61,242 nucleotides of DNA from IMG/VR virus record IMGVR_UViG_3300031994_005355; one strand, written 5' to 3'. Every line of letters starts with the position of its first letter. Position 1 is the first letter of the stretch. The translations under genes were made by a program, and so were the position numbers. The notes beneath the pieces were generated by a model. That model saw only the letters and a list, made by a program, of their open reading frames with translations, made no database searches and had not been told where the DNA came from. The stretch comes from a virus. Lineage: Duplodnaviria > Heunggongvirae > Uroviricota > Caudoviricetes. This document shows, piece after piece, positions 12,664-52,918 of this stretch.

Positions 12664-12695
12664 AGGGGCACACATGTGCCCTATGAAAGGATGTG
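12664..12695 (+). promoter_or_regulatory. Hairpin+RBS motif copy 1
   Basis: AGGGGCACA-CA-TGTGCCCT followed by ATGAAAGGATGTG; 9 nt after the virB4 stop. Confidence 0.6.
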
Positions 12696-12700
12696 ATTAT

Positions 12701-14023
12701 ATGATAGAATGTAAGGTTAATATAGAAAAAGATATATATCTTATGCATAAAGATATAAAAGTAATGCAGATTAATATTGATGAGAACAGATATACTATAT
12801 TGAATGAAAAATATATGCCATTTAATTTTCGAGATGCTTTTCTTGTACATGAAGTAAAAGATACGTATACTGAATATGATGCAATACAAATAGCAAGGTG
12901 TGTACGCAAAAATGCAGCACGGTTCACTAATTGGTTGTCACATCGTGTACTTCTTTTAACTCAAGCAAATGCAAAGCGCTTATATCAGGCTTATCGTTTA
13001 GTACAAAGAGATGATGAAGGGACAAAAGCAAAATTAGCATTGACATATCGTGCACTATCAATATTGGATAATTACTGGGTAAAAAACCTTGATGACAATG
13101 CATCATGGGAAGATGTAAATCTACGTAATAATTCTTTGAGTGAAGCTGTTACACAAATAGCATTACATGGTAGATCTCTTACACTTAATGGTATGCCAGA
13201 CCCTTATGCTTTTTCAACAAATGGTGCTTATGCAAAAGCATGGCATCGTGATGAAGATAAGTCACTATGGTTATATAAAGCTGGCTATAATAATTCTGAA
13301 GAACGAATTGAAGTAGAATGTTCGAACATACTAGATAGATGTAATGTAGCTCATTGTCATTACGAACTACGACAAGACGATGATTTAAGAGTATGTGCTT
13401 GTCCTTCAATGACTTCAGATGAAATCTCTATTGCGGATGGTGATGTATTTTCTTCTTATTGTAATATACACAATTTAAATGTAGATAAAGAACTTGTTAA
13501 TCTTGATCCTGATGGATATTACAAAATGTTTATAATTGATTACTTACTTGCAAATAGAGATAGGCATACACAAAATTGGGGTATTTACTATAAAAATGAT
13601 ACAATGGAGATTTTAGGATTACATCCTTTATTTGATCATAACAATGCATTTGAAATTGATGTAATGCAAAATGAAGATTTTGAAAGTCACTTTCTTAATC
13701 ATACATTAAAAGAGAATGCTATGTATGCTATGAAACAAGTAGATTTCCATTTTACGGAACCAATTACACGTGATTTATTCCTAACAGATAGACAATACAA
13801 AACATTTATGTCTAGAGCAGGACAGCTTGGTATAAGTGTACAAACTCTTACTAAAGATGATTTATATGTACAATATGGTGGTTTTCAAAAATATAAAGAC
13901 AGTGTTTTGAGTATACTACCACCATCACAACGCAATGCTGAAATCTCAAAAGATTATATAGTATCATTGAAATATGCTTTACAAGCTGTACAAGGAACAC
14001 ATAATTGTTATAGAATTGATTAA
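12701..14023 (+). CDS. HipA-like/CtkA-like Ser/Thr kinase
   Basis: GAYAKAW...LYKAG (Gly loop/Lys), ERIEVECS, IDYLLANRDRHTQNWG (catalytic loop) and PLFDHNNAF. Start moved from track 12674 to ATG 12701 after the SD. Confidence 0.85.
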   Translation: MIECKVNIEKDIYLMHKDIKVMQINIDENRYTILNEKYMPFNFRDAFLVHEVKDTYTEYDAIQIARCVRKNAARFTNWLSHRVLLLTQANAKRLYQAYRLVQRDDEGTKAKLALTYRALSILDNYWVKNLDDNASWEDVNLRNNSLSEAVTQIALHGRSLTLNGMPDPYAFSTNGAYAKAWHRDEDKSLWLYKAGYNNSEERIEVECSNILDRCNVAHCHYELRQDDDLRVCACPSMTSDEISIADGDVFSSYCNIHNLNVDKELVNLDPDGYYKMFIIDYLLANRDRHTQNWGIYYKNDTMEILGLHPLFDHNNAFEIDVMQNEDFESHFLNHTLKENAMYAMKQVDFHFTEPITRDLFLTDRQYKTFMSRAGQLGISVQTLTKDDLYVQYGGFQKYKDSVLSILPPSQRNAEISKDYIVSLKYALQAVQGTHNCYRID

Positions 14024-14067
14024 TGCGCATACGTATACGAACCATAATAGAAAAATAGGAGTAATTT

Positions 14068-14442
14068 ATGAGATATTTTGCAGGAGCGATATATTTTGGT
14101 GATTTAGAAGAATGGGGTATATCAGTATCAAAAGAAAGTGCTCAAACAATTGCTAATAATTTACCTAAAGTAACAGCATATTGGCGTACTATTCCAAAAC
14201 CTGAATCACAAGATTACACAGACTGTATCAATCATTACTTTAAATATGAAGCAACAGAATTATTACGAACACATGAACATGCTTTATATATGTGGTTTGA
14301 TGATAATAAAGCACAGTTTGCTTATCTTACTTATGGTAATGGTTATTTTCTTGGGTGTGAAGATATTACTGGTATGTCACCACGTGAATATATCAATAAA
14401 GTACAATTATTTATGAAAATAGATTTGGAGATGCCGCTATGA
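14068..14442 (+). CDS. Hypothetical protein
   Basis: 124-aa ORF with SD AGGAG; ATGA overlap with the next gene. Confidence 0.7.
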   Translation: MRYFAGAIYFGDLEEWGISVSKESAQTIANNLPKVTAYWRTIPKPESQDYTDCINHYFKYEATELLRTHEHALYMWFDDNKAQFAYLTYGNGYFLGCEDITGMSPREYINKVQLFMKIDLEMPL

Positions 14443-14963
14443 TTTGGTATAACATTATTCCACAATTACAACAATTACCAGACTACATACAAGTAATACA
14501 TATAGCACTAGATTTTCTATTGTATTTTATAGGGATGTTTATGTGGTACAAATATCTAGAGTTACCTAAATGGAAAAGTTTAGTACCAATGTACAATTTA
14601 TTTCCATTATGTAAAAAGATTGAACGTATAAATTTTGCATACATTATAAATGGTACTTGGCTTACTTATGTAGTAGGATTAGCTTGTTTTCGTTCATATG
14701 GATTGGACAAGCAATTATTTACACCATATGGATTCGGTGTATCTTCAACACAGAATATACAAGCAATGGGAATTTATATGATCTTATTTGTACTATTGTA
14801 TCTTAATTTTGTATTTGCAAAAGTACTATGGTTATTAATAGCACATAAATATAAATTATCCTATAAATATGCAATATTAGCAGTTCTCTCTGCTGGTTTA
14901 GCATTAATACTTATGCAAGTAAAATTGAAGAAAGAAGTCAGTACACAAAATTGCTATAGGTGA
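14439..14963 (+). CDS. DUF5684-like membrane protein
   Basis: Four hydrophobic helices and the WKSLVPMYN motif resembling the W-x-A/S-x-I/V-P-x-Y-N signature. Confidence 0.55.
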   Translation: MIWYNIIPQLQQLPDYIQVIHIALDFLLYFIGMFMWYKYLELPKWKSLVPMYNLFPLCKKIERINFAYIINGTWLTYVVGLACFRSYGLDKQLFTPYGFGVSSTQNIQAMGIYMILFVLLYLNFVFAKVLWLLIAHKYKLSYKYAILAVLSAGLALILMQVKLKKEVSTQNCYR

Positions 14964-14969
14964 AATATT

Positions 14970-15470
14970 ATGCGTTGTTTAACATTTCAATCGCCAGATG
15001 TACTGGCAACAATTCTCTCAGATAAAATCTATAAAGCTGACCCAACCTATGGACGTGAGAAAAATGATTACTCTTATGAACGTGCTCGTTTAAAAGGAGC
15101 TGAACCCATCTGGTTATTTGCAAATCCAGAAATTGAAACTGGAATTACGGACCAGGAGAAGTTAGCTGAATTTCTAATTTCATGTCATGATGCCATGTCC
15201 TTAGAATGGCACCATGGACTTGGTTCTATGTTCTGTCTGGAAGTTGAGGTTTATAAGTTCATACGAGGACAGACAGGTGCTACTAGTAAATATGAATGTA
15301 TCACAGAACAGCTTACTAAAGATCAACTGATTGCTACTTACACCTATTATCCTAAGTACAACTTAGTGCCTATTGATAAGTATCAAAATACAAAAACATT
15401 TCTTGAAAAATGTAATGGTGGTTTTGTACAATACCCATCAATCATTGGATATTACAATGTAAGACAATAG
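14970..15470 (+). CDS. DUF3841-like protein
   Basis: N-terminal LTFQS, PIWLF and LEVEV motifs recall DUF3841 proteins (from memory, not searched). Confidence 0.35.
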   Translation: MRCLTFQSPDVLATILSDKIYKADPTYGREKNDYSYERARLKGAEPIWLFANPEIETGITDQEKLAEFLISCHDAMSLEWHHGLGSMFCLEVEVYKFIRGQTGATSKYECITEQLTKDQLIATYTYYPKYNLVPIDKYQNTKTFLEKCNGGFVQYPSIIGYYNVRQ

Positions 15471-15477
15471 AATAAAT

Positions 15478-15519
15478 TAAGGAGTCTTGAAGACTCCTAT
15501 GAAAGAAGGTGATTAAATG
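15478..15519 (+). repeat. 42-bp direct repeat copy A (hairpin+RBS+ATG)
   Basis: TAAGGAGTCTTGAAGACTCCTATGAAAGAAGGTGATTAAATG; 40/42 identical to 16893-16934; contains the 8-bp stem AGGAGTCT/AGACTCCT. Confidence 0.9.
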
Positions 15520-16521
15520 CAGTTTATAGATTATGATTGGAAAGCTTATAGTAGATTAGATAAAAAACAGCGAAGTGAGCAGATAAGTCATCTTATACCA
15601 TGTGGATATGATTATGATTTATATGACTTAGAATTTACATTTGTGCCATTAAAAGAAATGCAGACTATAAGTCAAGAGATAGATGACCTTTACAATGATA
15701 TCAAAATAGTAGACAACACAGTACAATTGGAACATGAAGTTTATTTTACTTCAAAAATTGAAGGTGCTGATACAACTATTCAGCGTACACATGAGTTAAT
15801 CACACAAGAAGATAAACCTAAAAACTTTAGTGAGAATATGGTTATAGGCGCATATAATGCTACTAAGTTTCTTAATTTACATCCAGGAAAAATGTCTGTA
15901 GATTTAATTTTGGAAACTTGGAATATCCTAGTTGAAGATGCCTGTGCCAATTCAAGTATTCGTGGTGAACGATTTAGAACAGGTAATGTACAAGTAGGGA
16001 AGCATGTAGGTATGCATAAAGATTATATTGAAGGAGCTATTGAGAAGTTTGTAGACTATTACGAATCAATAGATCTAAATAACTATCCATACATTAAAGC
16101 TGCTATATTACATTATATCTTTGAATTTATACATCCATTTTGTGATGGTAATGGAAGGCTAGGTCGTTTACTAATGCTGAATTATCTTATAAATAATGAC
16201 AAAGAAAAGTTTAAGGCAATTGCCGTAAGTCCTGCTATAGATGCTGATAGACAAAGTTATGACTATAATTTCAATATATCTGAAAATGTATATAATGACA
16301 TAACTCCTTTCATTATTTATATGCTTACAGTATTTAGAGATTCTATGAAAGGATTGACTGAAACTAAAGATTATGAGTTTCTTGTGCAACAATTTTGCAG
16401 ACAAAATAAAATTTGTTATGGAATATCTAAAAGATTGTTTAAAAATGATGGTTACAATAATAACGACTTAGAACAATTCTATGAGTGGCTACTAGAAGGT
16501 AATGGATTTAAAATTGACTAA
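15517..16521 (+). CDS. Fic-domain protein (class II, intramolecular inhibitory helix)
   Basis: Canonical HPFCDGNGRLGR motif; N-terminal TSKIEG fits the (S/T)xxxE(G/N) inhibitory motif; FRTGNVQVG flap. Confidence 0.92.
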   Translation: MQFIDYDWKAYSRLDKKQRSEQISHLIPCGYDYDLYDLEFTFVPLKEMQTISQEIDDLYNDIKIVDNTVQLEHEVYFTSKIEGADTTIQRTHELITQEDKPKNFSENMVIGAYNATKFLNLHPGKMSVDLILETWNILVEDACANSSIRGERFRTGNVQVGKHVGMHKDYIEGAIEKFVDYYESIDLNNYPYIKAAILHYIFEFIHPFCDGNGRLGRLLMLNYLINNDKEKFKAIAVSPAIDADRQSYDYNFNISENVYNDITPFIIYMLTVFRDSMKGLTETKDYEFLVQQFCRQNKICYGISKRLFKNDGYNNNDLEQFYEWLLEGNGFKID

Positions 16522-16557
16522 AAGGTACACATTAAATATGTGAAAGAAGGTGATAGT

Positions 16558-16884
16558 ATGGCTGAGATAGGTTCATTAGAATGGATATTTGAAGAAATGG
16601 ATAAGTCAGAGTATAGAGACTATTCAGAGTATTTTAAGGTAAAAGACTACAAAAAGCATATGGAAGGTAATATTTATGTTCTTGATGAAGATATAAATAT
16701 TGACAAGTTTATGGATGAGAATAACTTCACTGGTGGTTGTTATTTTGACCAAGCATCAAGACTTGTGGTTGCTTATGTTTTAGAAAAAGATATCGAGGAA
16801 CTGCATAAAAAATACAGTGAGTCTAATTTAAGATGGCAGTATAAAATTTACTACCCTAACACTCCAGAAATTGTTACACTGTAG
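16558..16884 (+). CDS. Small acidic hypothetical protein
   Basis: SD GAAAGAAGGTGA immediately upstream; start moved from track 16540 to ATG 16558. Confidence 0.7.
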   Translation: MAEIGSLEWIFEEMDKSEYRDYSEYFKVKDYKKHMEGNIYVLDEDINIDKFMDENNFTGGCYFDQASRLVVAYVLEKDIEELHKKYSESNLRWQYKIYYPNTPEIVTL

Positions 16885-16892
16885 TATAAATC

Positions 16893-16934
16893 TAAGGAGT
16901 CTTAAAGACTCCTATGAAAGAAGGTGATTATATG
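16893..16934 (+). repeat. 42-bp direct repeat copy B (hairpin+RBS+ATG)
   Basis: TAAGGAGTCTTAAAGACTCCTATGAAAGAAGGTGATTATATG. Confidence 0.9.
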
Positions 16935-17474
16935 TTAAATTTATGGTTTACTAAACCAATAGAAAATGAATATATAGGTAAAAAAGATACTTGGTTTCCA
17001 TTAATCTTTCAGAAAGAATGGATGAATGATCAGATTATGATTGATGTGTGTGATATGGTTCGTCATCATAAGTATCTAGGTGATGGTGCTTGGCGTAATG
17101 AAAAAGGTTTTATATGTGGACCAGATAAATTACCTGGCACACTTAAGACATTGATAATGATGTGGAACATGCCTGATGAAATATTTCCTATTGTGTACGT
17201 CGGACCGATTGCAAATCATGCTTTAAAATTAATAACAGACCAAAAAGATATAGATATTTCACACGGAAGTATTTTTGCTTTTACGTGGGATCCGGAACAA
17301 ATGGTACGCCTAATGGAAGTAGATGGTCAACCTATTATAAATGTAAATGAAATGTATGAATATCTATATGATCTTGGAAGAGTTAAAGATATGTATACAG
17401 ACGTTATTTGGAACTTTACGAGAGGTGGTATGAAAGATTATGAGCAAACATATCTTAAACACACCATTCACTGA
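16932..17474 (+). CDS. DUF4869-family protein
   Basis: MLNLWF...WF..EWMND...GPDKLPGTLKTLIMM...VG matches the DUF4869 pattern (MLNIYF...LSGGVKTLIL...CG). Start at ATG 16932 inside the repeat. Confidence 0.7.
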   Translation: MLNLWFTKPIENEYIGKKDTWFPLIFQKEWMNDQIMIDVCDMVRHHKYLGDGAWRNEKGFICGPDKLPGTLKTLIMMWNMPDEIFPIVYVGPIANHALKLITDQKDIDISHGSIFAFTWDPEQMVRLMEVDGQPIINVNEMYEYLYDLGRVKDMYTDVIWNFTRGGMKDYEQTYLKHTIH

Positions 17475-17580
17475 CATTACATTTGAACCAGAATATAAAG
17501 TATCCTTATGGGTTGGAATTGGCGCAGATGGTAAAAGTGCATTTCAGAGATTAACTATAAAGAGTTTTATGAATGGTTAA
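17440..17580 (+). pseudogene. Truncated P-loop ATPase fragment (46 aa)
   Basis: SD AGAGGTGG; MSKHILNTPFTDITFEPEYKVSLWVGIGADGKSAFQRLTIKSFMNG* contains a strand plus Walker A-like GIGADGKS and stops shortly after. Not in the ORF track. Confidence 0.5.
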
Positions 17581-17602
17581 AAAATAGTAACGGTAATATC
17601 TA

Positions 17603-18709
17603 ATGTCATTAAAAACATTTTTATATATCTCTTGTGTGTTATCAGTTCTTATTTGTATCTTAACTGTGATACAATTTAAGAAAGCACATACAGAGTATAA
17701 AGTTAGTTACAAGAAAATTGAAATAGGTATTGAAAAGCCTAATGTGTACTATTCACCTGAAACATTAGCAGATGGCAGTAATAATCAGCAGTTAATAATA
17801 AACAATATTACTGATAGTACACAAAATAAACAACAATTACAAACAAATACTTTAACTACTCAAGAATATCAAAAAGTAGTAAATATGGTTGACATTAGTT
17901 ATCCAAATGCTAAATTGTATCAAATAGCAGATCAATATTATCAAGTCTATTATGATAATCAACGTGTGAGTCCGTTATTTCCCTTAGCACTTGCAAATGT
18001 TGAAACACCTGGACGTGCTGATAATAATATAACTTGGTCAGCATTATTTCCTTCAAAAGTAGTAGACTTTGATTTAATAGATAACTTTAATGTTACATAT
18101 GTTGCACAAGATCCCATAACATATAATGCTTTAATGCATGAATACTCTACACGTGATCGCGGTGCATTACAAATGTCACCCACTTATGGCACTAAGAATG
18201 AATCATATAATTCACAAATGACAGGAACAGAAGTTGAGAAACTTTCCGCAATAAATATAAATCCTAAAGCTGTAAGTTGGGCACAAGGAGCGTCCAGTTA
18301 TAGTGGTGATCGCTTTAATATAAAGGATGTATGTCTGCGTTTAGCAAGTGCTGACTATAATGCAGTACAAGACATACAAAAGCATAATGTTAATATAGAT
18401 TCTGAAATCGAATTAATAATTATGATGGCAATGTATCATCATCGTTCAGGTGTATGGCATGTTGATGGTGCAGGTGGTTGGAGAAGTTTTGATAAAGCAC
18501 TTGCATATGCTAAATATTTAGCATCACAAGATATGGTCACAAGTCTGAATGATATTTATAAAAGTTCTGAAGCATTGACATTAGATGGTAAAGTAGCACT
18601 TAAATTATGCCCAGAATGGAATAAATACACAACGTCATCATTAGAAGCAAGTTACCCAATTAAGGCTTTATATTCTTATATAGTTTTATTACATAAATAT
18701 GGAAAATAA
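17603..18709 (+). CDS. Membrane-anchored lysozyme-like/lytic transglycosylase-fold protein
   Basis: N-terminal TM; PLALANVET (catalytic Glu at helix end), RGALQM (GxxQ) and MAMYH motifs of the lysozyme/SLT superfamily. Confidence 0.55.
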   Translation: MSLKTFLYISCVLSVLICILTVIQFKKAHTEYKVSYKKIEIGIEKPNVYYSPETLADGSNNQQLIINNITDSTQNKQQLQTNTLTTQEYQKVVNMVDISYPNAKLYQIADQYYQVYYDNQRVSPLFPLALANVETPGRADNNITWSALFPSKVVDFDLIDNFNVTYVAQDPITYNALMHEYSTRDRGALQMSPTYGTKNESYNSQMTGTEVEKLSAININPKAVSWAQGASSYSGDRFNIKDVCLRLASADYNAVQDIQKHNVNIDSEIELIIMMAMYHHRSGVWHVDGAGGWRSFDKALAYAKYLASQDMVTSLNDIYKSSEALTLDGKVALKLCPEWNKYTTSSLEASYPIKALYSYIVLLHKYGK

Positions 18710-18742
18710 GGGTACTCATGTACCCTCATGAAAGGAAGTGAT
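18709..18742 (+). promoter_or_regulatory. Hairpin+RBS motif copy 4
   Basis: AGGGTAC-TCAT-GTACCCT followed by CATGAAAGGAAGTGAT, then TTG start at 18748. Confidence 0.6.
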
Positions 18743-18747
18743 GCATA

Positions 18748-19563
18748 TTGAAACATGCAACAGTTAAGTACACACTTGCAGTGTTAGGTTCAGTAGTATC
18801 AATCGGTACTGCATCTATGATAGCAAGTAATCAGTGGTCAAGAACTGATTACCTAGATTCGTCCAATCCGATTGCTATTACATTACCTAATACTATTGAT
18901 GTATTTACAAATATTTCTCCTGATGTAGAAGAGTTAAAAAATAAAGATGCTCCATTAGAAAAAGAGAAAGATAAAACAAGTAATGCACAACAACCAAATG
19001 TCGAGTTACCTGCACCTGTAAATCCTTCTGATAAATTAAGTTATATATGGTCAGAATTGACAAAAGTAATGTCTGATGAAGCCGCTGCTGGTGTTATGGG
19101 AAACTTACAAGCAGAACATGGTTTTAAAACAGATGATACCCCTAACGGTTTAGGTATGGTACAATGGACTGGTGGACGTAAAACACTTGCACAAACACTT
19201 GCACAACAGTTTGGAATGCTACTTAATTCAGTTGAATTTCAAGTAAAGTATATCTTAATGGAGTTAGGTGGCGATGCAGGTAATGGTGTAAGCAATCAAT
19301 ATAGAAGCGATGCAACTCATGTAGCTAATTATGCAAATGCTATTGGTGCAGCATCAAGGATTGCGGGTCGTACACTACCAACTTCTGTAATAATGGATGC
19401 TAATTCATTTAAATCATGCAATGATGTAGACTTAGCTGCAATGTCTTGGATGTGTTTATATGAACGTCCAAGTTCTTCGATAAAAGCAGATGGGACTCCT
19501 GTATGTCACGCAGATGTAAGAGCAAATGCTGCACAATCAATATATCAGACTTATCACAGATGA
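18748..19563 (+). CDS. Phage-tail-type lysozyme (Phage_lysozyme2-like) with N-terminal signal/anchor
   Basis: AAAGVMGNLQAE, GLGMVQWTGGRK, FQVKYILMEL, YERPS, RANAAQSIY motifs. Confidence 0.85.
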   Translation: MKHATVKYTLAVLGSVVSIGTASMIASNQWSRTDYLDSSNPIAITLPNTIDVFTNISPDVEELKNKDAPLEKEKDKTSNAQQPNVELPAPVNPSDKLSYIWSELTKVMSDEAAAGVMGNLQAEHGFKTDDTPNGLGMVQWTGGRKTLAQTLAQQFGMLLNSVEFQVKYILMELGGDAGNGVSNQYRSDATHVANYANAIGAASRIAGRTLPTSVIMDANSFKSCNDVDLAAMSWMCLYERPSSSIKADGTPVCHADVRANAAQSIYQTYHR

Positions 19564-20240
19564 ATACATTATTAATAACTTGTACATTAGCAATGATTGC
19601 ATTTGTAGTTTTATATTTACGTATAAATAAACACATAAGTACACGAATGTGTATAATAGCAATCATTGTTATCATACTATTAGATTTTCTTTTGATTTTT
19701 ATTCTATCTAAATTCAGTCAACCTGAAGAGTCGCCAGATACAGAGAGTACAGTATCTACAGAGGTGTCAGAAGAAATACAACTAACACCTATAGAAGAAA
19801 GATATAAAACAGTATATGATTTAGGTACTGAGTTCACAGCTGATGAACTTAAAGATGAAGATACTATGTATTCTGAATTGATTTCATATGTTAGTGATTT
19901 CACTATGAATAATAATTACCCATTTCCTGGATACATTGGTTACATAAATACAGATTCAGATGGAACACATTTTTATTTCTATACTTATTTAGGTACTCAA
20001 GTCTATGACTGTGTACCTGTAGGAAATAAGTTATACATAAATTTTTATGGTTCAGTATATAATAAGGGGTTTAAAGGAATAATCTATGGTAATGTGAACT
20101 CCACAAGAATAAATATAAAAGGACTTGAAAAACGTTTGATACGTATGGGTCTTAATGATTTCTTTACTATCACAGATGTTACAGATAAAGAAGTAACTGT
20201 TACATCACCTAATTGTGGTACTCACACATTACGGATATAG
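19560..20240 (+). CDS. Membrane protein (2 TM) with acidic extracellular domain
   Basis: ATGA overlap with the lysozyme stop gives start 19560 (track 19503); two N-terminal hydrophobic helices. Confidence 0.7.
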   Translation: MNTLLITCTLAMIAFVVLYLRINKHISTRMCIIAIIVIILLDFLLIFILSKFSQPEESPDTESTVSTEVSEEIQLTPIEERYKTVYDLGTEFTADELKDEDTMYSELISYVSDFTMNNNYPFPGYIGYINTDSDGTHFYFYTYLGTQVYDCVPVGNKLYINFYGSVYNKGFKGIIYGNVNSTRINIKGLEKRLIRMGLNDFFTITDVTDKEVTVTSPNCGTHTLRI

Positions 20241-20247
20241 GTAAATT

Positions 20248-23123: not shown

Positions 23124-23139
23124 GAAAGGATTAAATACA

Positions 23140-26100
23140 ATGCACAAGTCATTAAAACGGTTTAGTATCTTACTTGCTTTTATGACTTTATGTACATCAT
23201 CACCTGCTTTCGCTGATGTAGTAGCAACTGCACAAACCGGTGAGAACTCAAAGGTTAGCATCTTCGAAAGACTTGATAGTGCAAATTATCCGGACTCTTA
23301 TTATAATGACGAGTTTACTTGGTCTGATGTTAATCAGCAAGTAATAGATAAGTCATATCCTGAAGGAGATCCAAGACGTTACACATTACCTTGGGGACGT
23401 AAACGTAAAGGTATAATAAACGGTAACGAAGTAGGTAGTATAGGATTACGTGAGAAGCAGCTCACAGGTCGTGACTGGATGATTGTAAATCCTAACTACA
23501 AACCTAAACAGGGAACACCACTTTATGATGATGAAGTAAAAGCTTTTAATAACGGTAACATTCTTTGGAATAAAGTTAGTAAAGCTGTTTACGATAAGTG
23601 GATGAGTTTTGAAAATGGACCTGGTGACTCACCTTTTTATGAGACTGGTGAATACGGAACCATAAAGCAATTATCTGTTGCTGGTAAGAATTATGGTGAA
23701 GTAAAAACTAAAGAAGCTCATAAAGTATGGGTGACAACATCTGAGCGTCCTCAGGACTATAAGGATACAAATGGTAAACCATATGAATATGATGCAGATA
23801 CTGACAATGTCTTCAATTTAGATAAAACAAAGAAGACGCAGTTAAATGCATTAGTAAAAGATCCTTATGGTGACAATAAAACTGATTATCAGTACACACG
23901 TTCACGTTATCAAGTTGTGGTACGTCATAAAGCTCGTGGTACTGATCATCACTCAGAATACTATATAAATGGTAGATCATATGCTTCAAATGATCCAACA
24001 GTTCCAGCATATAAGTTTGAAGCAAATGTGACACCTAAACTTAATATATCTGAAGAGTACTTAGATTTCAAACCTTTTGGTAAGATAACTTCTTGGGATC
24101 AGTATAAAGATCAGATAGATCCTCAAGGTGGTTGGATGTTCAAGACTGCTTATGAATCTTGGGGATTTGAAGACTACGATTATACGGGTGAGAATGGTTA
24201 TATTCTTTATGATTTTGATAAAGATACATTCTATAATCACGCTGATGATGGAACTTATCCTTTAGCAAAGCATGATGCTATTGAAGGCGCTAATGTTCCT
24301 TCTTCTGGCGGTGTAGTACGTCCGTATGAAGAAGGTATGTTCCAAAAGTATGATCCTACAAGAAATCTATATACACAGATACCTAATCCTGGTAACTATA
24401 AGAATTATCAGTTATATAAATACTTTATTCCTGCTACAACAAAAACTTCTAATTATACAGTAAATGATTTACCTAGCATATATACGAAGACTGGTAAATA
24501 TGTAGATCAGAAGCCTGAAGAAGATAGCAAAGAATGGACATATAAAGAACGTGTAACTGATGTAGATGATATAAATAATTCTGATTTCACTTACGGATTA
24601 TTTCACTCACATAAACTTGTTAAAGGACAGTTAGATTCATATAGTTCCAGTCCGTATTTTGGGACTCACTTCAATATGGATCAGACTTATGTGAATGCAC
24701 GTACACATGCTATTGTACGCGGATATATACGAGACAGTGAAGAGCCTGCTTTATACGCAGCTGATAATCCATATAATAATATGTGGAATAATCTGTGGTT
24801 TACAGATGGTACGTTCACTGTACCTCGTACAGGTTCGGCACGTACACAGGATATTGACGATGCAAATTTCAAACCTCAGTTCATGTCTTGGGATCCTAAC
24901 TTTGAGTATTATAAAGCTCTTAAGACTGCACTGTTAAAAGCAGATAAAATAACTACTGCTGGTAAAGACACATTTACAATACAGAACCCAAGTTTCAAAA
25001 CTTCAGGTACAGCAACATTCGATAAGAATAATATGTATACGGTTTCTTCTAAAGACATAACAGAACCTGTATCTGTATGGAGTGATTGGAAAGATGATTC
25101 CATATCTGTTACAATTCCAAGTGGAAACTTTTATTACGATCAATCTTCTGTAAGGAGTCAACTACAAAATTTCTTAAATTCATATAATTCTTTACGTGAT
25201 ACAAGTACAAGACAGTACTCAAGTATAAATAATCCTAGTATTTCAACATATCTTAGATGTGAAAGCAATTACCATAACGATCATACATATCATATTTCTG
25301 GAAGTACTACATCAGTTGTATCGGAATTAATAGATAGAATTTATAATTACTATTATGATCATCCTTATAATCATCACTACCCTTATAATCATCCTTATTA
25401 TTATGATAATTATATGAGCAGCGACGTAACTAAATTCACTGTTACATATAAGTATCGTGACCTCACGACTACACAAGAAAAAGTTGGTACTGCATATACT
25501 GTAAAGCTTAATGGAACTCTTGTAGCACCTGGCTCACTTGGTGATAGTGCTTCAGATTATCAAAAGTTCTTAGAGCTTTCTTATAATGAAAGAAGTTCAA
25601 ATACAAACTATGTTGGTACAGGTGCTTGGTTCAAAGCAATATTCAAAGAATATTCAAAGGCAGCACTGTATCAGGATTACGATCATAAGACACTTACATC
25701 ACGTCCTGGCGAACAAGGATGGGTACAACCTGCACGTGATATGAACTTCCAACCTCGTTCTCATGAACGTAAACAGTATTTCACATTTGATATTTATACA
25801 CGTGAACTTGCGGCTGATGGTAACACATATTACACATACAATACACCTATAGCAATGTTTGATGATAATGCTGACACGTCTATAAAGAAACTTGATGGTG
25901 TGGAGGTTACCGGAACAAAAGCACGTACACGTTCTGAAGATTTATTCCAGTATCTATTCCGTACAAACTTCATTTATGATGCTTTACAGGAGTATATGGA
26001 CTGGACACCTAATAATAATTTCTACACAGATAAACTAGATACTAAGTCAGATTCAGATAAAAACGCTGTAAATGAGAAATACTTCAATAGATATACTTCA

Positions 26101-29100
26101 CGTACTTCAACTGAAAAAGTTATGCGTGATGGTGCAGAAGTTGAAGTTGTAAAAGCAACAAAAGCACTTAGTAAGGAGTTTTCATACTTCCCTTACACAG
26201 ATGCATCTAATGTAAACTTTACTTATAACAATAATATTCTTCAGAAGTATTCTTTATGGCTTACACAGAAAGGTATGACTTATGAAGATTTCTGCAAATA
26301 TGGAAAAGACTCTAATGGTAAACAAGTACCTATTTCCTATAATAATAAAGGTATAAAGATTTACAATACTGAGGACGTTATTTTCCAGCAAGTACTTATG
26401 AATAATCATGGTGAGACTGTTCAAGCGTTTGTACCTGCAAATAATCAGACACGTAGCCTATATGCAAACGTACACTTTGATTCTGATGAAGGAAACAATG
26501 TCGTAGACGATGAGTTTGAAGTTTGGCCTTCTGGTATAAAAGAAATCAAAGCAGCTTGTACTGCAGGTGATTATGCAAATCTTGGATATGTACAATTCTT
26601 AAATACAGATTCAAAAGTAGGTGATACTAAGAAAGTTTCTGGACGTTCATATACACATTCAACTAATTTTGACCCATACTTGAATGGTGCAGTTGTATAT
26701 CCTACAAAGAATAGGTATAATGGTGTAATTGAAAGACCTGTTTATGAAACACAAGAAAAGGATATTTATGGCGTTATACAGAATGTCGAGATACCTACAG
26801 TACATTATTATACGGTTTTAGTAAATCCTTTAGGTTACACTCTTGACACTGTAAACTGTGCTGCAGCTGTGCAACAGGAAGATATAATTGATGAATCACA
26901 TCATGATTCATTAGCAAACTTCTTAAATATGGCATCAGCAACATTCGCATTTACTGATGGTAAAGACACTGACACACACATAAATCCTGCATGGTGTTAC
27001 AATGTGGCTTTCAAAGTAAATGGCAATGCTAAATTAGACTATGAAGCTAGTCTTGGTGACAACTTTATGTTAGATTCTCTAGATACATTAAATAGATCTT
27101 CTACAGGTTTAGTAGCTGCCTTAAATTACTATAGTTATGAAAACTTTAATAAAGAAAACCAGAGTTATACAATACAAAATACACCATATGTTTTACAGCC
27201 TACAACAGATAGAACAAATTGGGATTATGCAAATAATGTATGGAATGGTTATGGTTATAGTTATACAGGTTCACAGGCAGAGGGTGGTATGAATGATGTA
27301 AAAATGTATAGGGGTAATAATCCCGAAACTAAGACTTTACACCTTGATGCTAATGGAATAATTATAAATGATGAATTTACATTATATGCTGCTAATGAAG
27401 AAGAAGCTAAAAAAATACATAAACAAAGTCAACAAAAGCCAAAAGACGCTGAACTTACTGAGGAATCTTTGATAAGGTTAGTTGAACCATATCACACTAA
27501 ATCTATAAACGTACAAATTTCTGATTCAGGATTGAATGAACTAGAACTTAACTCAGAAACTATAAAAAATATAAAAGGCTACGATCAAAATTCAGCTGAT
27601 GTAGATAATCCTAATTACTATAAACCATCTACAATATATTTTCCTCGTTTATATAATAAAGATCTTGTATTTGAAAAAATGAAGATAAATGGTGTATATG
27701 ATTATTATGATACAAATAAAGACCCATTAGCACAGACACAAGATTTTGAAAATAACACTAAAAATATACAGTACATGTCTACGCTACCTAGATTTAACAA
27801 TCAGAATATGACTTTAACACAAGCAACCGATACTGCGTTAGCATTAAAAACCCAAATACATATTCCTAATGTATTTGCTGGTACACCTGTTATGTTATTA
27901 GCATTACCCGAGTACGAACAAGGATTACATCATTTAGACACTAAAGTTACTAAAGGTCTAGAAGTTGACTATTATGTAAATCATCCAGATTTTAAAAATA
28001 TAACAGTGCGTGCTGACAATAGTATTGAAGAAAATAAACAATTTCAAATACGCACTTATACAAATTTAGATTCAATGGGTATTAATCGTTGTATGTTTAT
28101 AATGCCAACACAAAACATTAATATAACATTTAATTCAGATACTGTAGATGTAGTTTACGCACCATCGGTATCAAAACAATTTGAATTAACTTCATTAGAT
28201 GAAGTGTCTAATTTTTATGTAAATATGTATAATATTGTAAGTAAAGGCACAACAGGATTAACAGCTGGATTTTTACATACAACTCCTTATACTCAAGATG
28301 TTACTGATGGAATAGACTTAATTAAAGATGAAGACTATATTATACAAAATAATAATAATGCAGCTAATAAAGATAGAGTATTTTGGGTACCAAGTAAATA
28401 TCAATATAAATCATCCTATGCATCATCTAAAGATAAACCATGGAGTAAGTCTAAGAAAGATCAGTTTTATAAATATTGGTATGATGATTATGGTACAGGG
28501 TTTCACTCAGATTATGAGAGTAATAGTTATGCATATGTGAAAAATAAAAAACGTATTGCACATTATAATTACTTCAAGAGAGACTATCAAGATGAATTAA
28601 GCGATGGTACGATAATTCACAAGTATGTTACTCCATACGAATGGTATGATAAGGCGTCAAAGGATAAACGAATTTATATTTACTCAGTTGTGGATAGTGA
28701 ACGCTCAGCGAGTGATTCAGATTCAGAATCCGACCTAGCTACTGATAGTGACCAACCAGCTGACCAACGTCTTTATTCAGCACTATATATAGAGCTTCCA
28801 CAGAATAATAAAATACCATATTTTACATTAACACCTTTTGCACCTGGTACATATTTTTCGTCATATCCTGGAATAAAGAAAAATACGATAGATGATTATA
28901 TACAAGCACAATTAGATAATCCACAAGGTGTATATACACCATTAGCTAAAGCTACATTAACAGCTACGGAACCTACTAGCACATCTGCACCTACTACTTA
29001 TGAATATAATGGTGGTAAATATTGGGACGTTCCTGTTGAATTTACTGATATACTAGATAACAAACATATAGATGTGAGTGCCACAAAAAACACTAAAATA

Positions 29101-32100
29101 CCATTTATTACATTAGACACATCTACAATTAAAAATAACTTTGTAGATATAGATAATATAGATAATAAAGTTATGAAAGCAATAGCAGTATCTGATCGAA
29201 AGGACGCTATTACATCTAACATTGAACAATTATTAAGTACATTAAGTATAAGAGATATATCTTTAGATGAGATTGTACAAGTAAAACCTTCTTATAAAAC
29301 CTTACGTAAGAAAAAGAAAATTGGACAAAATCAAACTGTTAAGCAATATTCAGACGGTAAAGTAGTACAAAAACAGAAACTAAAGAAAGTACAACTAAAT
29401 AAATTATACACAGTAAAGAAAATGAAATACAAGGCTAAATTATCAAGGGCAGAATTAGATAAATGGTTACAATTTGCTTCTGTGCGTGACATGATAAGTG
29501 GTGGAGATCCAGTTGAAGATGATGTACTACAAGAATACTACGTATTTCCAGAACATGCATCATCAAATTCTTATATATTAAAACATCTAACAAATTTCTC
29601 AAGAGAAATAAGTGAAGATATTAACAAGGATAAACCAGATAATGTTTCTCTAGAAGGATTTAAATACGCTGTTGATAATTATGATTATAGATTGGCATTA
29701 TCTTATTTAGGTTTACCATTATTAACAATACAACCTGTAACCATAGGTACAGTAAATAAGAAACTTATGGATAGTCTATGGAAGCATGTCAATAATAAAA
29801 ACGAAACTACTGAATTAAGAAATAAAGTAATGCAAAATAGACAAATATTTAGTACAGCACCAATTGACGATTATGTAACTAACTTACTAGGATATGGTAC
29901 CTATATGTTTAAAAATGGCAATGGAATAGCTTTCGGATTCGGTAAGGATTATTCAATTTTCCAATCCAGTTACACAGATACTACTGATCTTTATGCGTAT
30001 TATAGAGGTAATCCTATTGGTGCAACACGACCAAAAGTATTATTATTTGATATATTTACACAAGCTAATATAAATCCAGAAACAGGAAAACTTAAACGTG
30101 TTAGGGAACGTAATGAAGCTTATACTAAAGTAAAGGATAGGGACCCAGATGAAGAATATACAGAACCTAAGTATGAATATTCCTATCATGTAGCTAATGG
30201 ACGAAAATTAAATACTATACTAAATTCAAATTCTTCTTATGTCGCATTTGTAGGTTACAATAAAGCGAAAAGTTTAGTTAAAAAGAGTAAAGATATAACT
30301 TATAAAATGCCAAGCCATCTAAGTTTATATGGTAGTGATGATGACGGTGATGATGATGATGACATATATGATCCTGATGAAGTAGAAGACCAAACTAATG
30401 ATACAGGTAATGATACAGAAGATGAAGCATCTGATGATGGTGATGTGTCAGGTTTAACTGAAGACCCAGATACAGAAAAAGATTGGGGACAAAAAGGTCT
30501 TTGGAGTACATCTGTTTACACTATTGATGGTTCCACACAAGAAAAAGCACGTAATTCTAAAAAATATGCTAAACAAGTATATGGATTTTCTTGGAGTGGT
30601 AACTATATGATAGGTCTTACAGGTTCTGGTTCTGGAAGTAAAAGTAAACGAGACTCTTATATAATTATGCAACCAAATGAAACAGGTCAGATTATAAATG
30701 TATATGGCATGAATTCGAGCTATTCTAATCCTGTAGCGATGGTAATGCGTGATAATATATTACTTCTGAAAGAAACTAATAATGGTGTAATGCTTTTTAA
30801 GTGTACACTAACTAGTTCAAATTATTTTAAAGAAGTTAAAAATGAGTATAACAACATTATGAATAAGGAATATGATAAAGATGATTATACTAAAAAAGAA
30901 ATTGCAGAAGATAGACTAACTATGTTACGTGCTTTATTACTGAATAGTATGTTAAAGGGAGATAAAGATGATACAACAGTAATACCACCAGCACAAACTG
31001 CCAACTTATACACTAATACAAATGATGCCGTTAAAAATATCATACCTGGTTTTATGATAGGTAGTTCTGATTATAAGAAGTATGGTGACACTAATTACAT
31101 TTACTACAGTGGTAATTATACATGGGAAGCTAGTACAGCAGATCCTGATGAGTTTAGTACGTATTCCAAAGGTGTTGTGTATAATCCTGATGGTACAGTA
31201 GCTTATGTACAATCGGGTAAAGAATTCTATGATAGCTCACTTAAACAAGCAGCAAAAGAGGCTAAGAAAAAATATAAAGTAAAGAAGAAAAAATTAAATA
31301 GTAACAACATATCTGATAGTGTAAATTATATTACAAAACCTAGAGTTGCTGGTCTTGAGAACGTACCATTAGATAGTAGTAATTTAATTGTACACGGTAC
31401 TGGTGGTGCATATCCAATGCAGATAAATTCTAGTTCAAAGAAATCAGTATTTGGGGTCACCGGAAACTATAAAGCAGATATAGATTATTATGTACTATCT
31501 GGACCAGAGTATAAACCAAACAAATATCCACAGTTATCAATTAAAAATTCTTATAGAAACATAAATATGAATGGTATTGAACATATGGGTTACATAATAG
31601 CACCACAACCTGTAAATAATGATGAACAAAAACGTACGGGTTTTGAAGTTGTATATAGTGGATCATATGTTATACCTTACTTAAATATGTTTATTAATTC
31701 TTTCGAGTATTCAATAATTAGTAGTGCTCCAGGGTACACACAACTAGATATAGATAATCTTCATGCAAGTGATTACAATATAGAACATTTATTATTTTAT
31801 TTAATGAATGGTACTCCCGTACAATCTTCTGATACACTGTTACAATATTTTATGGCACAACCAATGCTATTTGTTAATGTTACTCAATGGTATGGAATAG
31901 CACTTGATCCAGGTATATGTATATACCGTGGGGATGGTTGTAGGTTTAGTAATGAGAGTTATATACAATTATATGATCTAATGTTACAATATTCAGCAGT
32001 ATATAATACATATGCAAAAGGACAAGGTGTTGCTGTAGAAAATGCAGATCAACATAATAGATATTATAAATCTACAAATGCAGAATTAGCAGCTTACAAA

Positions 32101-42886: not shown

Positions 42887-42894
42887 GAGGTCTA

Positions 42895-44121: not shown

Positions 44122-44134
44122 GGTAAATATATTT

Positions 44135-45007: not shown

Positions 45008-45153
45008 GTATAATATTCAAAATAATAAAAGATACATTCCTAGCACTATTAATATGCTCAGCATTTTTAACTTTGAAAAAGAATAAAGAAAGTAGTTTCT
45101 TAATGTTGGCATTTTTGATAATATTTTTCTTATTAGGAATTGATGTCTTTTAA
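45004..45153 (+). CDS. Small two-TM protein (49 aa), not in ORF track
   Basis: ATGA overlap; MSIIFKIIKDTFLALLICSAFLTLKKNKESSFLMLAFLIIFFLLGIDVF*. Confidence 0.6.
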   Translation: MSIIFKIIKDTFLALLICSAFLTLKKNKESSFLMLAFLIIFFLLGIDVF

Positions 45154-45169
45154 TGAAAGGTTTTTCCAA

Positions 45170-46869: not shown

Positions 46870-46872
46870 AGT

Positions 46873-47703
46873 ATGGCTTTTAAAGTACTAATGTTTTCAC
46901 CATTACACAATATAGGCTTAACTACAGTAACTGCAATGATTGCACACACATTCGCCTATAAAGGTTTCACATCAATGATAGGATACACTGATGTATATAA
47001 TGCAATACCAAGATACTTTGGTGTCACTGATCTTGATGACCCCACACGTTCAATTACACAGGTAATACGTATGGTGGATTCTAACTCAATAAATTCTAAA
47101 GATATTCTGAAGTATGCATATCAGTATGACATTAAACATAAAGCATACTTTATGAACTTCGGAGATTCTAGACTTAACGACACAGCACAGCACAGAATAC
47201 TTGATTATGTATTCACAAATGTGCCAACAGATTTAACAATCTTAGACATGTCTGAAGCACCTGATAATGGATTTGCACAAGAGATGATACAGAAGGCAAC
47301 ATCTATATTCATTGTGACAGACTTATCAGACAAAGGTCTTATGATTGCAAAGAACTGGATGGAGTCAGATTTATTCCCTAGTTTAGATGACGTGTATATC
47401 ATATTAAATCATTATGAGGATGTTGTTATACCGTGGAAAAGAATGGCAGATAAATTAAATGTATTACCATCACACGTGTGTAAATTACATCATAACCCAT
47501 TCATTACACAGGCATCATTGAACAATGCTTTACATACACTTGTACCTCTTATAGAGGCACATGAGCCTAAAGTAGCAAATCTAAATAATGATTTGAAAGA
47601 AATAAATCAGGCGATTAATGACTATGCTTTACAGAAGCGTAATCACATTAATTTCCAGGATGCTTTAGCTAAGCTGCAGAGGAAAACGCATATAGGTATT
47701 TAA
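46873..47703 (+). CDS. CpaE/TadZ-like MinD/ParA-family protein
   Basis: VLMFSPLHNIGLTTVTAMIA (deviant Walker A), TILDMS, IFIVTD, ILNHY; located directly before TadA. Confidence 0.65.
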   Translation: MAFKVLMFSPLHNIGLTTVTAMIAHTFAYKGFTSMIGYTDVYNAIPRYFGVTDLDDPTRSITQVIRMVDSNSINSKDILKYAYQYDIKHKAYFMNFGDSRLNDTAQHRILDYVFTNVPTDLTILDMSEAPDNGFAQEMIQKATSIFIVTDLSDKGLMIAKNWMESDLFPSLDDVYIILNHYEDVVIPWKRMADKLNVLPSHVCKLHHNPFITQASLNNALHTLVPLIEAHEPKVANLNNDLKEINQAINDYALQKRNHINFQDALAKLQRKTHIGI

Positions 47704-47706
47704 TCT

Positions 47707-51635: not shown

Positions 51636-51639
51636 ATAA

Positions 51640-52212
51640 ATGACGTCTGAATTAATTGGATATATACCTGAAGATGCTGAAGTTCGTGAGATTCTCATGA
51701 ATGAAAACAGTGACGAAATCTTCTATATGTTCAAAGCAAATTTTCGAGGAATAGACATGGATGTCTCTATATCCTCGTACACTTATGATGGTGCCAAAGG
51801 TACTGTAAAAATTATAGGTTCATATTGTACAATGAAATGTACAGATGATGATGGTAAAACCGTACATGTACCCTACATATATGCAGTTGATATAAGTGAG
51901 GTAGATGATGATACACCGTTAACTAATAAAGTATCTTTCAATATAAGAATTACAAAGACTTATAAGTATCTAATTACTGAACAAGGATTAGAACTGCTAT
52001 TTTTATTTGGAACTGTACTTAATGTGTTTAATGGTATAGAAGTATATAAGATTTGTCTTAAAGGGGCTAATGCTAGAAAGTATAAAAATTGTGCCAAAGG
52101 TACAAGCTTTACCGCGACAGCATATCTTAAGAGTTATGGAAAAGGTATTGAGTTCATAGTGGACGAGATACTAGATGAAGAACAAGAAACAAAGTTAATG
52201 AAGGAGATTTGA
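51640..52212 (+). CDS. SSB-like protein (probably tandem OB folds)
   Basis: C-terminal half NKVSFNIRITKTYKYLITEQG...YKICLKGANARKYKNCAKGTSFTATAYLKSY...EFIVDEI follows the SSB strand pattern (N-x-V, T-x-x-G, W/x-G-x-x-A, KG-x-x-x-x-x-G/A-x-L). Confidence 0.5.
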   Translation: MTSELIGYIPEDAEVREILMNENSDEIFYMFKANFRGIDMDVSISSYTYDGAKGTVKIIGSYCTMKCTDDDGKTVHVPYIYAVDISEVDDDTPLTNKVSFNIRITKTYKYLITEQGLELLFLFGTVLNVFNGIEVYKICLKGANARKYKNCAKGTSFTATAYLKSYGKGIEFIVDEILDEEQETKLMKEI

Positions 52213-52216
52213 TTGT

Positions 52217-52870
52217 ATGAATATTCAGGAAGGTAAAGATACCTCGGAAGGCGGCGTTAGCTTACTGTTAGTTGTACTTGTTATAGCAGTGTTTGTAGCA
52301 CTTGCTGTATTTGGTTTGAACCTGTTCACAAAAGGACAGAACAGAATGTCACAGACTGCTGGTACTCTGGACTCAGCACAGTTCTCAGCTTATGATAATA
52401 AGATGATTACTGGTGATGAAGTTCTCTCAGCAGTACGTACATATCTTGCTCAGAATATTGTTATTGTTGTTGATAACAATAATGCAGACCTTGATGTAGT
52501 TACTGGTACAAAGGATGCTGGAGCAGATGCAGAACTTACTGTAATTTCTAAGTATCCTGATGATATTAAGACTCCTGCTGCATACAATGTAGGACTTAAA
52601 GCAGCACTTCAGTCAGCACCTGGTGAAACCAAACTTGTTTGGAATCATTTAGATGGTAGACTTTATGCAGCTAAGGCTCCTAATAATACTGAGAACTTAG
52701 CACTTACTTCTGAAAAGAATTCTAATATCAGACCTATTACATCTAAGGTTATCGGAACAGAAACATCTGCTTATTTCGTTGAGTCAGGTGCAAACTATTA
52801 TGCCGTTCTTATTAACGATCCTTCAACTAAGACAGTTAATGGTATCTGCTTTATAAGACAGGCAACCTAA
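52217..52870 (+). CDS. Pilin-like protein, candidate major pilin
   Basis: Short leader MNIQEG, then KDTSE and a long hydrophobic helix; YDNKMITGDEVLSAV motif; biased codon use (CTT/GGT/GCT/AAC); followed by a strong hairpin. Confidence 0.65.
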   Translation: MNIQEGKDTSEGGVSLLLVVLVIAVFVALAVFGLNLFTKGQNRMSQTAGTLDSAQFSAYDNKMITGDEVLSAVRTYLAQNIVIVVDNNNADLDVVTGTKDAGADAELTVISKYPDDIKTPAAYNVGLKAALQSAPGETKLVWNHLDGRLYAAKAPNNTENLALTSEKNSNIRPITSKVIGTETSAYFVESGANYYAVLINDPSTKTVNGICFIRQAT

Positions 52871-52879
52871 TAAAAACTC

Positions 52880-52918
52880 AGGTGTGTACTTCATGTGCAC
52901 ACCTTTGAAAGGATGTGG
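52880..52918 (+). promoter_or_regulatory. Hairpin+RBS-like motif copy 5
   Basis: AGGTGTGTAC-TTCAT-GTGCACACCT followed by TTGAAAGGATGTGG; 10 nt after the pilin stop. Confidence 0.6.

Follow-up and report, generated by a model that had tools for sequence, protein, structure and literature searches.

Hairpins fused to strong Shine-Dalgarno sequences recur at gene junctions of a large mobile element from the ruminant gut: a putative RNA-level junction module

Stable hairpins lying beside a strong complement of the 16S rRNA 3′ end are found in the 5′ stabilisers of Bacillus messengers (aprE, the cryIIIA STAB-SD, the SP82-derived polypurine, cggR-gapA and glnRA). In Bacillus subtilis, RNase Y cuts AU-rich unstructured RNA, often with structure downstream, and in cggR-gapA and glnRA a hairpin at the cleaved 5′ end protects the product from RNase J1 (PMC11780869). 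The aprE leader is stabilised by a 5′ stem-loop plus ribosome binding without translation, and STAB-SD and the polypurine stabiliser act through sequences resembling a Shine-Dalgarno (SD) sequence (references 106, 109 and 179 cited in PMC3997798). Such leaders are the closest functional analogues of the modules described here, hairpins fused within 2-3 nt to an extended SD sequence, which are dispersed in a 61,242-nt stretch of DNA (the whole stretch analysed, hereafter the window) belonging to the virus record IMGVR_UViG_3300031994_005355. Like the Bacillus stabilisers, the modules join a stable hairpin to a strong 16S complement (-16 to -17.2 kcal/mol), follow the first cistron of a polycistronic messenger, directly behind an A/U-rich single strand, and, in one copy recalling STAB-SD, carry the SD-like element without a start codon. 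Unlike them, they form a repeated unit at seven junctions of a mobile element and share no sequence homology with any of the Bacillus leaders.

The closest genomic analogues are the PeSLs (promoter-early stem-loops) of T4-type phages, together with the SAS and ESAS repeats of mycobacteriophages. In a PeSL, the stop codon is followed by AT-rich sequence, then by the stem-loop, and finally by the SD and start codon of the next gene (PMC2839356; PMC4122927), an arrangement that the modules reproduce. PeSLs are repeated in hyperplastic regions beside accessory open reading frames (ORFs), as are several modules here, their stems often contain G·T pairs with G-rich and C-rich arms, and cassettes occur between two units in one genome where a relative has one. 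However, a PeSL spans about 100 bp, against 29-47 nt from stop to start here, with shorter homology between units, and the modules belong to a Gram-positive-like host and lack a sigma-70-type promoter: no sigma-70-like -35/-10 pair was found at the modules, where only 2-3 nt separate stem from SD, and promoter-like matches overall number 95 against a shuffle expectation of 116. The start-associated sequences (SAS) of Cluster K mycobacteriophages are conserved, asymmetric 13-nt motifs that contain an SD and stand just 5′ of the start codons of some non-structural genes; roughly half of them have an inverted repeat directly before the motif (ESAS), and all share one orientation, with unknown function (PMC3203893). 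A conserved 13-nt motif also precedes the start at six genes of the window (3-8 nt before it in the case of SAS). Since this motif is not the SAS sequence GGGATAGGAGCCC, we regard the modules as analogues and not as members; moreover, ESAS repeats are 17 bp long with a genome-wide consensus, whereas the stems here are unrelated and of 6-13 bp, the 13-mer here is a generic anti-SD complement, and the host belongs to another phylum. Both the REP elements of Escherichia coli and the hairpins of the clostridial cip-cel operon are intercistronic, lack a U-tract, follow stop codons and can set differential mRNA stability, but none is fused to the next SD. REPs further differ by their conserved sequence, hundreds of copies, presence in both orientations and RAYT transposases; a shared palindrome with a conserved head and a Y1 transposase were both absent from the window, where stems are unrelated save for an AGG/CCT base in most. 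Lastly, integron attC sites are likewise imperfect palindromes at cassette boundaries within promoterless gene arrays, although the attC length, the conserved cores (R″/L″-L′/R′), the extrahelical bases and the integrase IntI are all absent from the window.

A mechanical scan of the window for strong hairpins (7 bp or more, including four or more G-C pairs) returned ten, six of them intergenic and one more straddling a stop codon (35906-35930). Behind six of these seven junction hairpins, 2-3 nt away, comes a 13-mer that differs at no more than two positions from GAAAGGAGGTGAT, the complement of the Bacillota 16S rRNA 3′ end. This combination of a hairpin abutting an extended SD occurs six times in the window, compared with 0.08 times per shuffled window; the corresponding fractions of sites are 6/20 in the window, 6/22 in close relatives (at least 67% identity in the VirB4/TraG-like P-loop ATPase encoded at 10619-12655 on the + strand), 1/75 in distant relatives and 16/503 in unrelated DNA. 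The family has seven members in the window, at 12665, 15480, 16525 (decayed), 16895, 18709, 35906 and 52880. A first-pass annotation, made from the letters alone, had listed five copies (12664, 15480, 16895, 18709 and 52880) and a weak sixth; the five stand as perfect stems of 7-10 bp (-11.2 to -16.2 kcal/mol), and the member at 35906-35945 had been missed. In the reported copies the hairpin begins 9-10 nt after the upstream stop codon, except at 18709, which overlaps its stop by 1 nt. Hairpins measure 18-25 nt, without extrahelical bases or a GTTRRRY motif, and after a gap of 2-3 nt the tail of the five reported copies reads GAAAG(G/A)A(T/G/A)GTG(A/G)T. The pattern TGAAAGRANGTG has seven exact occurrences in the window, all on the + strand, and GAAAG(G/A)ANGTGAT sits 3-5 nt 5′ of the start at six genes. 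The AGG opening and CCT closing earlier ascribed to every stem are frequent, not universal: 35906 and several copies of relatives lack them, and at 12664 the leading A is unpaired and the stem is closed by a G·U pair.

Judged by its predicted pairing, the tail is an extended and exceptionally strong SD sequence. For each of 56 starts, the duplex energy of the preceding 25 nt with GAUCACCUCCUUUCU was calculated. The module genes occupy ranks 2-6 of the 56 (-16.0 to -17.2 kcal/mol), with gene 35950 at rank 12, and rank 1 falls to gene 2831 (-19.5), which lies behind a detached hairpin at 2719. Module tails match the 16S-3′-end complement at 11-12 of 13 positions. The first-pass view of the tail as a Bacillota SD is supported and can be sharpened, since, gene 2831 apart, the strongest predicted SD pairing of the window is found at these modules. 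The T just 5′ of GAAAG is invariant in eight aligned copies, and every copy has it except 35906 (C).

Loci of relatives (L numbers below) were fetched around homologues of the ATPase, and orthologous junctions were found to retain a hairpin with unrelated stem sequences. After the ATPase gene, the stem GGGGCAC/GTGCCCT of the window is replaced by AGGGCACA/TGTGCCCT in L001, AGAGGGTTAAC/GTTAACCTTCT in L003 and GGGGAC/GTCCCC in L131, and in L130 the stop codon is enclosed in the loop of a 10-bp stem. After a conserved gene of 368 aa, AGGGTAC/GTACCCT in the window corresponds to GAGCCGCATC/GATGCGGTTT in L002 and to GGACAGAAGCT/GGTTTCTGTCT, with three G·U pairs, in L131. At a third junction, following a 217-aa gene, a hairpin is present in the window (52880), L132 and L134. 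Stems are of 7-10 bp in the window and reach 13 bp in relatives, the latter only if G·U pairs are counted. In a model-fitted alignment of 12 members, 96.7% of the cells pair (35-54% in slid controls) and 7/8 pairs change on both sides. Because the members were selected for having a hairpin, this alignment displays structure as their common denominator and is no demonstration of independent covariation; as for the covariation earlier seen among three copies sharing CATGT(G/A)C, it amounts to one compensatory change from C:G to T:A (12664 versus 18709) and nothing more. A symmetric wobble test was also carried out: allowing G·U pairs on the sense strand gains three modules and ten wobble pairs, and allowing A·C, the antisense equivalent, gains one module and three pairs, a modest bias toward the sense strand.

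The covariance scan that the first-pass annotation had proposed recovered the held-out copies, with matches in the window and close relatives only. The model (R1) was trained on three window copies and two from relatives, and run unfiltered on both strands. All four held-out window copies (18709, 35906, 52880 and 16525) were retrieved, and the rest of the + strand of the window gave no other match with E < 0.1. Among relatives, it matched only L001, L002, L003 (twice) and L131 (twice), four of these matches being held out, and about 227 kb of distant relatives, an unbiased background, gave none. The family is confined to one narrow clade. In public viral and genome collections the 18-mer pattern CCTATGAAAGRANGTGAT was found in 39 and 69 stretches, roughly the level expected by chance on a crude estimate; a hairpin ending at CCT is present in 3 of these 108, and none is a new member. 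Loci picked by this pattern receive 18-25 bits in the model from the tail alone and are thus biased as a background. The sole outside match resembling a full module lies at 5191-5234 of L089, a contig from a Clostridia metagenome-assembled genome of goat abomasum, where AGGGCAGG...CCTGCCCT is fused directly to ATGAAAGAAGGTGAT (34.5 bits).

The copy at 52880 departs from the others downstream of its tail, where the sequence (TTTGAAAGG in the tail region) becomes rich in TAA and offers no usable start codon. The following gene begins 45 nt further on, at 52964, with a weak SD of its own; the orphan tail has a predicted duplex of -16.6 kcal/mol versus -8.4 for the real SD of that gene. The same layout recurs in the orthologous gap of L132, a locus of the 247-kb element to which L002 also belongs. 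There, a long hairpin is followed after 3 nt by the start-less CAAAGGAGGTGAA, about 35 nt, and then a real SD with an ATG. The neighbouring 665-aa protein of L132 is 48% identical to that of the window, and the two gaps have no small ORF in common. This recurrence suggests that the orphan SD-like tail serves a purpose different from starting translation of the adjacent gene.

The reading that we tentatively favour, with a little less than an even chance of being right, is that of an RNA-level junction module combining an exonuclease barrier with an autonomous ribosome pad, within a very long array of co-directional genes; every step past the sequence features is one that we infer. The hairpin would halt 3′-to-5′ exonucleases arriving from downstream, and an RNase Y-like cleavage in the A/U-rich single strand just upstream would leave it as a 5′-terminal stem-loop. 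With a ribosome or 30S subunit bound at the very strong SD, this stem-loop would block 5′-to-3′ decay of the RNase J1 type. As the hairpin parts the upstream stop codon from the SD, the downstream gene would be translated by fresh recruitment rather than by coupling to the upstream gene, and this uncoupling would be what calls for so strong an SD. The outcome would be a portable expression adaptor, rendering an inserted accessory gene independent of its neighbours, and the start-less copy at 52880, with its counterpart in the relative, would be what is expected of an element that only stabilises, in the manner of STAB-SD or the aprE leader. The 15-50 nt shared at several junctions could, as a by-product, provide homology patches for the gain and loss of cassettes. 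Between the two options of the first-pass annotation, a signal for RNA processing or stability is the best supported, because the structure is kept without the stem sequence, wobble pairing is biased towards the sense strand, hairpin and SD stand at a constant distance and the orphan layout recurs.

Several points weigh against this reading. The module is missing after the ATPase gene in L002 and after the 368-aa gene in L130, so each is dispensable. The covariation count is partly circular, its members having been chosen for the hairpin and aligned by a fit to the structure. With 10 pairs against 3, the wobble asymmetry is modest, and anti-SD pairing gives no explanation for the invariant T before GAAAG. 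Stems of 7-10 bp are short, and the RNA evidence consists of assembled contigs only. RNase III targets in B. subtilis have duplexes of 10-36 bp (PMC11780869), and the stems of the window fall short of the approximately two helical turns of processing sites of the T7 or SP82 type.

Among the rival explanations, the one that survives best, though we hold it to be quite unlikely, moves the main role to the DNA: the modules would be recombination linkers in the manner of PeSLs, with repeated spacers serving as short homologies for excision, insertion or swap of cassettes without gene breakage, for which T4-type phages offer a precedent (PMC2839356). The gene content around the modules lends itself to this idea. 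Synteny by tblastn shows a conserved order (large protein, 5122, 6180, 8551, 9670, ATPase, 368-aa gene), and in L005, L009 and L011 nothing, or no more than a short gap, separates the ATPase from the 368-aa gene behind it. The window has seven extra genes in this interval (HipA-like, three small ones, Fic, a 108-aa gene and DUF4869), L002 four, L131 two and L130 one (PAS-GGDEF), L003 has a RelA/SpoT-like followed by a HipA-like gene, and L001 a DUF4869-like gene directly after the ATPase; on this comparison of gene orders, the gap is an insertion hotspot. Its coordinates are 12656-18709 in the window, 12015-15215 in L002, 4659-6237 in L003, 4434-5978 in L130 and 7321-9555 in L131. The cargo differs by relative and resembles toxin, signalling or defence genes (HipA-like kinase, Fic, DUF4869, RelA/SpoT-like, PAS-GGDEF, PilZ), and in L130 AbiEii and HipA_C genes come immediately beyond the 368-aa gene.

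Four modules fall within this variable interval or at its borders and divide it into [HipA-124-174-166], [Fic], [108] and [DUF4869...368]. The spacers at 15480 and 16895, duplicated from stop to start with 95% identity over 42 nt and unmatched in quality by any other dispersed non-coding repeat of the window, flank exactly the Fic and 108-aa pair, and in L003 the extra RelA/SpoT-like gene stands between two modules where the window has one. Both arrangements look like PeSL-style events, by analogy and among relatives too diverged for tracing recombination between units, and in their position the modules give some weak footing to the earlier proposal of sites marking cassettes. However, modules are also found between conserved genes (18709, 35906 and 52880), and in L002 and L130 the junctions at the inserted genes are plain. 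The stems differ save for the one duplicate pair, so that the homology shared is reduced to an SD tail of about 15 nt; the DUF4869 gene of L001 is 29% identical to that of the window, which excludes a simple module-to-module deletion; and viable gene indels must end in intergenic DNA, of which there is little here besides the modules. Finally, no recombinase is encoded in the window, and homology alone explains neither the perfect pairing nor the G·U bias. As a side observation, the HipA-like gene is also matched by two contigs of a sheep-gut RNA library, in which the match begins only 16-18 nt into the coding sequence (12717-12719), and one of them has another SD (AAGGAAGG) and a shorter N-terminus; since they diverge upstream, the HipA-like gene exists in another context, with the breakpoint at its start region.

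Next comes the possibility, in our view improbable, that the modules are transcription signals, either terminators or attenuators without a U-tract, read by a non-host or factor-assisted polymerase, or terminators acting on the antisense strand only. The hairpins do stand directly after stop codons, and in the minus-strand reading 2719-2744, 12666-12681 and 15480-15498 appear as hairpins with a T-run, scores that arise because the upstream side is A-rich, which is the normal composition of this coding strand. On the sense strand, the G+C-rich hairpin of an intrinsic terminator is present and the U-run 0-2 nt after the stem is absent, the tails reading AUGAAAG or UUGAAAG. The lack of U-tracts claimed by the first-pass annotation was upheld, with no terminator-like + strand site in the scanned region 2000-20000 and the tails of 35906 and 52880 read by eye. 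Terminator-like sites number 3, against 4.7 expected in shuffles, and the wobble bias favours the sense over the antisense strand. Efficient termination is unlikely because the sense strand has no U-tract and a promoter finds no room between hairpin and SD, so that it would silence the next gene. A point in favour comes from the related strong hairpin at 2719-2744 (+), of 10 bp, -20.8 kcal/mol and z -5.9, located 7 nt past the stop of a 902-aa gene and separated by an AT-rich spacer of about 65 nt from the SD at 2812-2825 (start 2831). This hairpin is probably a transcription-unit boundary, and neither it nor its L002 counterpart has a U-tract; in addition, the hairpin that L134 has at the counterpart of the 52880 junction carries a distal T-run. 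In both the window (2719-2744) and L002 (4993-5022), the giant first gene is followed by a strong hairpin that lacks a U-tract, and in L001 a hairpin (5042-5069) follows a small 146-aa gene that comes after the giant one. Their stems are unrelated, two of the three have AGG...CCT, and an AT-rich spacer comes after each. If these hairpins end a transcription unit, terminators of the clade would generally lack a U-tract.

There is a slim chance that the hairpins have no dedicated function, drifting neutrally through the few intergenic gaps, and that strong SDs mark genes unable to use coupling. The loss of modules at some orthologous junctions, the decay of 16525 and the restriction of the family to a narrow clade (ATPase identity at least 67%) would fit; the extreme enrichment at junctions, the perfect stems of unrelated sequence at three orthologous junctions, the conserved orphan layout and the tight link to the strongest SDs do not.

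A fourth explanation, for which we see very little probability, makes the hairpins the target of a protein: a translational regulator or endoribonuclease encoded by the element or, just before the SD, a polymerase recognising hairpin promoters of the phage N4 type. The promoters of the N4 virion polymerase have stem and loop sizes resembling the 7-8 bp and 3-4 nt seen here. The recurrent AGG/CCT stem base, the fixed stem-tail distance of 2-3 nt and the invariant T (NTG/TGA) between stem and SD, which anti-SD pairing leaves unexplained, could also reflect recognition, and giant proteins without an assigned function are encoded nearby. Nonetheless, neither the loops nor the upper stems show conservation, AGG/CCT is missing from 35906 and from several copies of relatives, and the giant proteins have no Pfam or PDB sequence match, with no RNA polymerase or candidate binding protein identified. 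Single-stranded DNA hairpins for a site-specific enzyme, either attC-like or REP-like and spread by a Y1 transposase, are scarcely credible, since the location at the 3′ ends of cassettes and the conjugation-like genes, which might imply a single-stranded stage, are outweighed by the absence of integrase or transposase genes from the window, by perfect but heterogeneous stems of 18-25 nt instead of 57-141 nt with no extrahelical bases, GTTRRRY-type core or shared hairpin sequence, by plain junctions at inserted genes, and by a fixed weld to the SD that has no role in such systems, so that this form of the earlier recombination-site proposal is close to refuted.

The individual modules, all on the + strand, are as follows. 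Module 1 (12665-12697) consists of GGGGCAC-acat-GTGCCCT (12665-12682), AT and the extended SD GAAAGGATGTGAT, between the ATPase stop at 12655 and the ATG of the HipA-like gene at 12701 (-12.8 kcal/mol; 45.3 bits in model R1; SD duplex -17.2). Module 2 (15480-15513; -11.2 kcal/mol; 46.4 bits) reads AGGAGTCT-tga-AGACTCCT, AT and GAAAGAAGGTGAT, 5′ of the Fic gene (ATG 15517), and its near-duplicate, module 3 (16895-16928; -11.6 kcal/mol; 47.6 bits), reads AGGAGTCT-taa-AGACTCCT, AT and GAAAGAAGGTGAT, 5′ of the DUF4869-like gene (ATG 16932). Between them lies the degenerate member (16525-16554), whose 5′ arm resembles those of modules 1 and 4 (AAGGTACACAT) and which keeps a 5-bp stem (-3.8 kcal/mol, z -1.0) and an intact extended SD GAAAGAAGGTGAT (duplex -16.0) before the 108-aa gene (ATG 16558). 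Flagged earlier as a weak sixth copy at 16528, it is a held-out model match (17.1 bits, E 0.011) and a decayed one: its 3′ arm is lost, and at 16522-16557 a related strain (run X6) lacks 1 nt and has 5 nt inserted, which suggests module decay and turnover. Module 4 (18709-18742) is AGGGTAC-tcat-GTACCCT, CAT and GAAAGGAAGTGAT, between the 368-aa gene and a lysozyme gene (TTG 18748), with -11.5 kcal/mol and a held-out match of 31.9 bits (E 1e-6). Module 5 (35906-35945), ATGTCACAC-ctaaaca-GTGTGACAT, TT and CAAAGAAGGTGAT, has the upstream stop codon (35916-35918) within its loop and leads to a TTG start at 35950 (held-out match, 24 bits, E 1.5e-4). Module 6 (52880-52919), AGGTGTGTAC-ttcat-GTGCACACCT with one U·G pair, TT and GAAAGGATGTGGT, has -16.2 kcal/mol and a held-out match of 21.7 bits (E 6e-4).

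Directly after every stem except that of 35906 there is an NTG triplet plus AAA (window 12683-12701, 15499-15517, 16914-16932, 18727-18750 and 52905-52922; L001 12069-12095). The NTG is in frame with the annotated start at 12664, 16895 and 16528 and in L002 and L003; otherwise it opens a mini-ORF of 4-8 codons, whose stop overlaps or abuts the real start at 15480 (TAAATG), 18709 (TTGA) and in L001, and which just ends with no start nearby at 52880 and at 4612 of L003. Two local candidates were rejected: a switch sequestering the SD, as the 3′ arm pairs with it over only 3 bp on inspection, and the AGGAG of the hairpin as an SD for the ATG directly 3′ of the stem, with a spacing of 14 nt and AGGAG buried in the stem.

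All long ORFs of the window are on the + strand, its G+C content is 30-37%, and intergenic DNA amounts to 1,122 nt (1.8%). Besides the ATPase, recognisable genes encode the HipA-like kinase, the Fic and DUF4869-like proteins, several cell-wall hydrolases, an RNase H, a DnaB-like helicase and a primase zinc finger. Most of the remaining proteins had no match in Pfam or PHROGs, including a giant of 3270 aa (23140-32952); a second giant ORF (56779-61242) exceeds 1488 aa, neither giant protein belongs to a Pfam family or has a PDB sequence match, and the relatives have still larger versions (4595 and 3398 aa). A PHROGs search with ten core proteins gave no matches, Pfam on the ORFs of the window returned no integrase, recombinase or transposase, an Rfam scan had no match at the gathering threshold, and a tRNA scan was empty. 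The ATPase was found on a contig of 293,727 nt and has 267 homologues, many on contigs of 150-290 kb, with no relative in viral_contigs and only one, distant, in genome_contigs; megablast of the island against phage and plasmid collections gave no match. Sequencing runs containing the stretch are sheep and bovine gut metagenomes, and the element is present in a sheep-gut metatranscriptome at 100% identity, as short assembled contigs only.

The family described here is new and specific to one lineage; the kind of signal to which it belongs is a known one, as is the general principle, and the gain is in family and context rather than mechanism. A broader version, unlikely as it stands, would see the modules as plug-and-play junction adaptors of huge (~250-290 kb) phage-like elements of rumen and gut Bacillota, which both insulate inserted toxin- or defence-like genes and serve as crossover points for cassettes, a promoter-less Gram-positive counterpart of the T4 PeSLs in which start-less copies would be ribosome-docking stabilisers. 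The start-less copy, kept in two diverged elements, provides a clean case in nature for examining whether an SD stabilises mRNA outside Bacillus. If the proposal is true, the modules would offer a compact natural hairpin-plus-SD insulator for operon design in Bacillota, and they would explain how a very large mobile element expresses newly acquired accessory genes (HipA-like kinase, Fic, DUF4869 and others) without a promoter for each, inside a one-strand array of tens of kilobases.

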